The translations under genes and the position numbers were made by a program. A stretch of 64,000 nucleotides of DNA. Origin: Promethearchaeia archaeon (GTDB lineage Archaea; Asgardarchaeota; Lokiarchaeia; Sigyniarchaeales; SOKP01). Location: positions 32,001 to 96,000 of the forward strand of contig JAHQWK010000001.1 in the NCBI GenBank assembly GCA_029856145.1, written 5' to 3'. Below the pieces are notes generated by a model, which ran no database searches, had not been told where the DNA came from, and saw only the letters and a program-made list of their open reading frames with translations. Numbering within the stretch: the first letter of the stretch is position 1; every line of letters begins with the position of its first letter. Below are positions 53,287 through 53,720 of the stretch, piece by piece.

Positions 53287-53559
53287 TTAGTTCTTTCTTA
53301 AGCCCTTGTTTCGTTGACTTATCTGATGTCCATGAATAGCACAGCTAATACAGTAATACTTAGTCTTACTTGGAGTTTGGATAATTGTACCAGTTTTTTT
53401 TAATTCAGTATACATTCGACTATCAACAAGAGAAACTCTTCTTGTCACAGCCTTAGCTTTACTCCTTGCTACAAATCTTCCACATTTGCTGCACTGAACT
53501 CTAGCATAATGTCCTTTACTAGAACCACTTCTTCCGCCACTTTTTCTTTTTTTTGGAAT
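53287..53559 (-). CDS. rps26e: Small-subunit ribosomal protein eS26, ATT start
   Basis: Manual: (M)PKKRKSGGRSGSSKGHYARVQCSKCGRFVARSKAK...YYCISCAIHGHQISQRNKGLRKN* (90 aa). No in-frame ATG/GTG/TTG before the upstream TAG at 53569-53571. Missed by the ORF track. Confidence 0.95.
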   Translation of the reverse strand: MPKKRKSGGRSGSSKGHYARVQCSKCGRFVARSKAKAVTRRVSLVDSRMYTELKKTGTIIQTPSKTKYYCISCAIHGHQISQRNKGLRKN

Positions 53560-53720
53560 AAAAATCAGCTACTTTTAGTTTTTTCTTATTTATCTTTACT
53601 CTATATCCTAATTGAATTGTATAAAACTTAAAAAATTTATCCTTTAGCGTGAAAAAGTATAAAATAAATATTGAAAATAGATATTTTAAGAGCTAAGTAC
53701 CCTATCTATTTTATTTATGT

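Follow-up and report, generated by a model that had tools for sequence, protein, structure and literature searches.

A predicted AUU start codon in the eS26 gene of a Lokiarchaeial genome and its probable place in Shine-Dalgarno-dependent initiation at ATT, ATA and ATC

Near-cognate start codons have been described for several bacterial genes: infC, which starts at AUU in E. coli and at AUA in S. aureus; pcnB; the S. aureus genes cvfC1 and ccpN (PMC13009471, PMC4705826); and E. faecalis ebpA (PMC4447247). A survey of prokaryotes found that weak starts go with stronger Shine-Dalgarno (SD) sequences; it was annotation-based and recorded an AUG-to-AUU change in 1 of 61,358 starts (Belinky et al., 2017, PMC5622118). 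For Asgard archaea, an ATT start has been proposed, and called rare, for the Kariarchaeaceae tubulin gene atubA (PMC13394414). This was the sole Asgard mention in the literature searched, which contained no genome-wide report of ATT, ATA or ATC (hereafter ATH) starts in these archaea and outside which most subscription papers lie. Here we analyze the gene of ribosomal protein eS26 (rps26e) in a 64,000-nt stretch (the window) of the Lokiarchaeial genome GCA_029856145.1 (contig JAHQWK010000001.1, positions 32,001-96,000), for which an earlier reading of the letters alone (the original prediction) had proposed initiation at AUU. We conclude, with a probability of roughly 0.85, that this start is real and is one case of family-wide, SD-dependent ATH initiation in which a third-position mismatch is tolerated.

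The host genome has a GC content of 30%, and most of the close homologues bear the NCBI label Lokiarchaeota or Promethearchaeota, which marks it as an Asgard genome of Lokiarchaeia type. On the minus strand, positions 53571-53545 read TAG (53571-53569) CTG ATT TTT ATT (53559-53557) CCA AAA AAA AGA, which matches exactly the frame of the original prediction. The features of the gene and its start region are as follows.

53559-53287, minus strand: eS26 (rps26e) coding sequence, 90 codons plus TAA (53289-53287), single copy.
53557-53559, minus strand: predicted ATT start codon in the Met1 column; start-model posterior 0.97; ATH in 36/36 loci of the genus.
53569-53571, minus strand: in-frame TAG, which closes the frame four codons 5' of the ATT.
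53564-53570, minus strand: SD-like AGCTGAT, with one mismatch to AGGTGAT (the complement of the 16S tail) and a 4-nt gap to the ATT.
53627-53645, minus strand: element AAAGGATAAATTTTTTAAG, conserved in the genus and its sister genus and resembling a B recognition element and TATA box (BRE/TATA-like), about 68 nt 5' of the ATT; upstream regions of about 45 loci were compared.
53482-53493, minus strand: first zinc-binding CxxC (C23, C26), 5' of the first canonical codon.
53446-53448, minus strand: GTG, codon 38, the first in-frame canonical codon; a start here would remove the basic tail at the N terminus together with the first CxxC.
53341-53352, minus strand: second zinc-binding CxxC (C70, C73).

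The absence of a canonical start before PKKR, the central claim of the original prediction, extends beyond the reading frame. ATG, GTG and TTG are missing in all frames from the 81 nt 5' of the ATT, and likewise from the interval between the likely TATA box and the ATT; within the eS26 frame, the first ATG is codon 49. The rest of the gene is intact, as had been stated: the frame matches Pfam PF01283 (Ribosomal_S26e) over residues 1-90 (E 2.9e-15, 57.1 bits; cut-off 27) and carries both eS26 hallmarks, (M)PKKR at the N terminus and a double set of CxxC zinc pairs (23/26, 70/73). Residue 1 aligns with Met1 of an archaeal eS26 chain (PDB 9fs6); no Asgard-labelled eS26 chain was recognised among the PDB matches. 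A second intact rps26e, which would have spoken against initiation at AUU, was looked for, and none was matched elsewhere in the genome.

The original prediction was silent on the SD-like AGCTGAT 4 nt before the ATT and on the tie between ATH starts and SD motifs. Pairing of this motif with the 16S tail is worth -4.0 kcal/mol with one mismatch, a modest SD and not an extended one. The tail in relatives is the standard GGATCACCTCC, so that the anti-SD is canonical; an altered anti-SD matching GCTGA was considered as well and is ruled out by these tails. Variable and rich in A elsewhere, the eS26 leader keeps AGCTGAT (85-100% identity per base); the motif is TAGCTGAT in 24/34 relatives and differs by one or two bases in the others (e.g., GAGGTCAT). 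The position of the BRE/TATA-like element would imply a leadered mRNA, with about 40-45 nt ahead of the start. There was no support for a regulatory hairpin covering the start (z 0.6), the region being unstructured, and a sigma-70 promoter scan, a model unsuited to archaea, stayed at chance levels.

Alignment of the start codons of relatives, a check named in the original prediction, gave no ATG in the genus. The column before PKKR holds ATT in 32, ATA in 2 and ATC in 2 of the 36 loci, which come from 35 genomes. The sister genus has ATT in 8 loci and ATG in 3; in three further genera of the family, the codon is TTG or ATG. ATG dominates in other families of the order, with ATT in G054, G055 and G039; in G054, a TAA abuts ATT-PKKR directly on the 5' side. 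Among 21 loci of other classes, we counted 10 ATG, 9 TTG, 2 GTG and no ATH (all these counts leave out 11 loci of families f17 and f24). Codons 2-37, which would be lost with a canonical start, differ from those of relatives mostly at silent sites (426 synonymous and 111 non-synonymous codon differences, 34 loci). G055, a closed genome of 6,035,313 bp that starts eS26 at ATT, is presumably the cultured Ca. Lokiarchaeum ossiferum; if so, a cultured organism probably offers a way to test the AUU start.

Database entries for eS26 disagree about its N terminus, with MPKKRK (90 aa), MIFIPKKR (93 aa), a 100-aa extended form and 62-aa truncations all present. The NCBI annotation of GCA_048940925.1 calls the 90-aa protein at ATT; hence NCBI already annotates ATT for some of these genes, without any comment that we found. 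Two further genomes are unusual in this respect. One genome (G057) carries two eS26 copies (contigs C203 and C83; L001, L058), both with ATT before PKKR; in one of them, this ATT is immediately preceded by an ATG. In G097 (G097:C1:2278820-2279147), which is a closed genome and belongs to another class, the eS26 match falls into two pieces, model positions 1-33 and 26-103, possibly through a frameshift or an intron.

The original prediction treated eS26 as the anchor of a wider non-canonical pattern, and the genome bears this out. Start sites of 2,971 open reading frames (ORFs) were modelled by unsupervised expectation maximisation (EM), as a mixture of genes with and without an SD, with a free spacer and all 61 sense codons allowed; a first version, which fixed on the upstream stop codon, was set aside in favor of this SD-mixture model. 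In the SD class (63%), the start-codon shares were ATG.66, TTG.16, ATT.053, ATA.042, GTG.04 and ATC.015. The non-SD class had ATG at.87 and nearly no TTG or ATH. Overall, the model puts ATH at about 7% of genes, CTG at 0.3% and ACG at 0.2%, and the same result was obtained for the congener G023 (890 kb). Substitution of common control codons worsened the fit. On resampling, ATH made up 10.4+/-2.0% of SD-led starts in the host genome, 10.6% in G023, 5.0% in G050 and 3.0% in G055, compared with 0.5% in a control, the Ligilactobacillus megaplasmid pMP118 (32% GC). When short loci of sister genera were pooled, EM gave unstable results. In a codon-spacing test on which we do not rely, ATT and ATA peaked at 5-6 nt after GGTGA.

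Comparison with the congener ties these codons to start sites and to the SD. Of 24 ATH-called starts with an orthologue there, 15 face ATH, 7 face ATG and 1 faces TTG; 8/24 thus face ATG or TTG, compared with 2.4% of the ATH codons inside genes that are opposite a canonical start codon (Fisher p 1.3e-7). From the ATG side, 10/322 ATG starts face ATH. A simple table of ATG partners did not, by its rates, separate start changes from internal Met-to-Ile changes; the comparison that begins from ATH calls is informative, and so is the strength of the SD. In 13 ATG/ATH swaps defined by alignment only, the member with ATH has the stronger SD (-7.97 vs -4.74 kcal/mol, p 0.001), and ATG/ATG pairs show no such difference. 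Consistently, eS30 genes across four genera of the family (18 ATG, 12 ATH) have an SD of -8.8 with ATH and -4.8 with ATG (p 0.002). ATH stands behind an SD motif in the host genes for eS30, eL34, eL21, eL8/L7Ae, uS14, a Pop5/Rpp14-like RNase P subunit and V-ATPase subunit E (eS30 and eL21 named by Pfam, the others by reading of the sequences). Its presence in several ribosomal protein genes suggests that such starts work reasonably well here. Besides eS26, the window contains the following cases.

63102-63104, plus strand: predicted ATT start behind GGTGA, the second clear case in the window; G023 has ATG in the column, and the next canonical codon lies 76 codons on.
5112-5114, minus strand: predicted ATA start of a CCG-domain protein behind AGGTGAT; G023 has ATG in the column.

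Further probable ATT or ATA starts lie at 51060 (-), 39045 (+), 19344 (+) and 38785 (-), in genes for MobB, an SNAP/TPR protein, a flavodiiron protein and a ThiS-family protein (posterior 0.6-0.97).

We propose that eS26 is made from a leadered mRNA whose SD-like AGCUGAU would pair with a normal 16S tail. The duplex would fix the register and bring AUU into the P site; there, the ordinary initiator tRNA (CAU) would pair at positions 1 and 2, the mismatch at C34 being tolerated and Met inserted. SD-led genes would then accept ATG, TTG, GTG and ATH, and SD-free genes would need ATG, as only AUG would be stable enough without an SD; such confinement fits the known requirement of leaderless mRNAs for AUG (PMC5622118). 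ATH starts may have spread through AT-biased mutation together with weak selection on initiation rate in slow-growing cells.

Several points weigh against this reading. Saccharolobus aIF1 rejects AUU in vitro (PMC4705826), and tolerance here would thus need a reason of its own. The eS26 SD (-4.0) is weaker than the ATH average of -6.6, an average that itself comes from an SD-using model. The figure of 7% is a model estimate, and some individual ATH calls fall in spurious ORFs or on codons inside genes. The sole negative control is a bacterial plasmid and not an AT-rich archaeon, and the genomes are related, so that p-values are overstated.

The weak start of eS26 could also be kept by selection, as negative feedback: abundant eS26 would cover the anti-SD and shut its own SD-dependent non-AUG start, with aIF1 acting likewise through start-codon stringency. 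We consider this possible, with the balance of evidence leaning against it. [quoted passage not shown] Feedback would fit the stasis of the column, as ATG is found in 0/36 eS26 loci of the genus vs 9/10 eS30 loci of the same genus, and of the ATH starts as a whole no more than 15/24 pairs retain ATH; yet inheritance alone can explain stasis in a conserved gene. It would also fit an SD that holds about one mismatch even when its sequence changes (AGCTGAT vs AGGTCAT), and TTG or GTG in 11/21 loci of other classes. However, plain ATG is used in 3/11 sister-genus genomes and in most of family f2, sometimes without an SD. The feedback reading also draws on the aIF1 gene (loci L066-L089, L285-L314), whose start is ATT in 21/21 loci of the genus that could be read, ATA in families f5, f7, f14 and f20, CTG in f9 and GTG or TTG in several other families; by analogy, a weak aIF1 start across Asgard archaea would be infC-like. 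Against a regulatory role, many housekeeping genes without one use ATH, and with about 7% of genes doing so the weak start is not largely peculiar to the regulated gene. Because ATH is common here, eS26 is not an infC-type, gene-specific device.

A broader version, which we hold to be a little less probable still, is a two-class system of initiation. SD-free genes would need AUG and SD-led genes would accept ATH, and the balance would depend on eS26, through anti-SD occlusion, and on aIF1, through codon checking; the genes of these two proteins fall into the weak class and would thereby form feedback loops. This would represent an archaeal intermediate between SD-led and eukaryote-like initiation.

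The tolerance might instead have a dedicated molecular cause, such as modification of C34 in the initiator tRNA or an aIF1 that has become weaker in this lineage. Mitochondria offer a precedent in the 5-formylcytidine at C34 of their initiator tRNA. Such a cause would account for third-position variants (ATH, about 7%) lying far above CTG and ACG, and for an ATH share that varies between lineages of similar GC. The aIF1 of the genus also has a distinctive loop context, SNDxRKWGR vs xEKR(R/K)(W/Y)G elsewhere, with some lineage-specific residues near the basic loop. On the other side, ATH is limited to SD-led genes, a limit not required by fully cognate reading, and aIF1 retains its zinc knuckle, GGT and QGDHR motifs. 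The initiator tRNA gene of the congener G018 is standard (A1-U72, three G-C pairs, CAU), as are the 16S P-site segments inspected. Neither aIF1 (24/25 congeners) nor aIF2beta (39/39 family genomes) is absent or broken in the lineage, and aIF1A and aIF2alpha are present in the host genome. Although aIF1, aIF2beta and the initiator tRNA were not found in the host assembly, their loss is ruled out: in relatives (G010 C57) all three lie on the contig that carries the 3' end of the 16S, the host assembly breaks inside 16S, and nearly all relatives have both factors. We consider a dedicated cause unlikely.

Several observations were of a different kind. In G178 and G184, though not in G018, the 3' half of the initiator tRNA gene contains inserts (L269, L280 vs L276). 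One locus (L169, G028:C18) has a 16S end unlike that of all other congeners and may be a contaminant. ARAGORN placed a tRNA-Sec (TCA) at G000:C8 c12915-13007, consistent with selenocysteine use in Lokiarchaeia; its low-threshold output was noise. Outside the window, the P-loop of the host aIF2gamma (GHVDHG|KTT) is split by an insert of 30 nt that contains in-frame stops and a hairpin (G000:C5:34199-34228, plus strand; L318), and the P-loop is uninterrupted in G002, G023, G050 and G055. Removal of the 30 nt restores the frame, and the insert may be an archaeal endonuclease-spliced mRNA intron; no clean bulge-helix-bulge was demonstrated in it. The aIF2gamma frames (L315-L319) are long (477-535 aa), with an N-terminal extension that in the host contains repeated GIGKATAE/GVGKATAE helix-hairpin-helix-like motifs.

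An earlier eS26 start, at CTG 53568 or ATT 53565 with the product MIFIPKKR, is very improbable. The CTG is in frame in most congeners, and two entries (P0002, P0030) are so annotated, but it forms part of the SD-like motif and is itself preceded by no SD. Moreover, it is out of frame in G001, with a TGA three codons upstream, is GTC in G011, G029 and G032 and is impossible in G054; the canonical codons of other lineages align at the 53559 column.

Recoding of ATH to Met, or editing of the mRNA to AUG, would give Met at the column without relaxed initiation, and we assign it almost no weight. Internal ATT, ATC and ATA codons align to Ile in 51-62% of cases and to Met in about 2-4% (two other genera), not the alignment to Met that codon reassignment would leave, and tRNA-Ile(GAT) is present in the host genome. 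By this alignment evidence, the internal code is unchanged and ATH still specifies Ile. Editing would need U-to-G, C-to-G and A-to-G changes at one site in different species. Assembly error or gene decay, conceivable in a draft genome, is refuted by conservation and can be dismissed, because ATH is found in all genus loci, which come from 35 separately assembled genomes, canonical codons occupy the same column in other lineages and the sole copy shows a purifying pattern in codons 2-37; the original prediction, too, had judged decay unlikely.

Initiation of eS26 at AUU, as originally predicted, is thus the best reading of the locus, one drawn from sequence. We have shown support of that kind for SD-dependent ATH initiation in codon identity, conservation, ATG/ATH interchange, SD-strength coupling, a normal internal code and standard machinery in relatives. 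ATH starts are textbook rarities, and their use in several percent of genes in a lineage close to eukaryotes would mean that archaeal start-codon stringency is far more variable than assumed. Standard gene finders misplace or truncate genes that start in this way, leaving Asgard database proteins mis-started, and such entries affect structure prediction and claims of domain loss. SD sequences have been stated to be rare in Lokiarchaea (PMC12993045); the SD-like motif that our model places before about 60% of genes is at odds with this, part of the class being a weak motif.

The eS26 gene has the sequence features of near-cognate, SD-led starts: no usable canonical codon, a column that is conserved or interchanging, and an SD at working distance. 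As in infC, pcnB, cvfC1, ccpN and ebpA, AUU or AUA stands behind an SD, is probably read by a normal initiator tRNA and is conserved across relatives. Those bacterial starts are confined to few genes per genome (four sites in S. aureus) and reach about 10% of AUG, whereas here we estimate about 200 genes, ribosomal proteins included; and their hosts use IF3 and IF2, whereas an Asgard archaeon uses aIF1 and aIF2. The pairing of a weak start with a stronger SD agrees with Belinky et al. (2017), but the 10/322 ATG starts that face ATH far exceed the exchange recorded there, probably at a larger divergence. With eS26, atubA shares an Asgard host, a fold that needs residues 5' of the annotated start and an ATT with a plausible ribosome-binding site; it differs in being a single gene of another class, for which no genome-wide claim was made. 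The eS26 of Saccharolobus solfataricus (PMC11698992, the study from which we take PDB chain 9fs6 to come) is an orthologue, aligned from residue 1 and with both CxxC pairs, but has a canonical Met1. Finally, aIF1 resembles eIF1 (poor AUG context) and IF3 (AUU) in that the gene of a fidelity factor itself has a weak start. Feedback has been demonstrated for eIF1 and IF3 and is inferred for Asgard aIF1 and eS26, and eS26 would act by anti-SD occlusion and not by codon checking.
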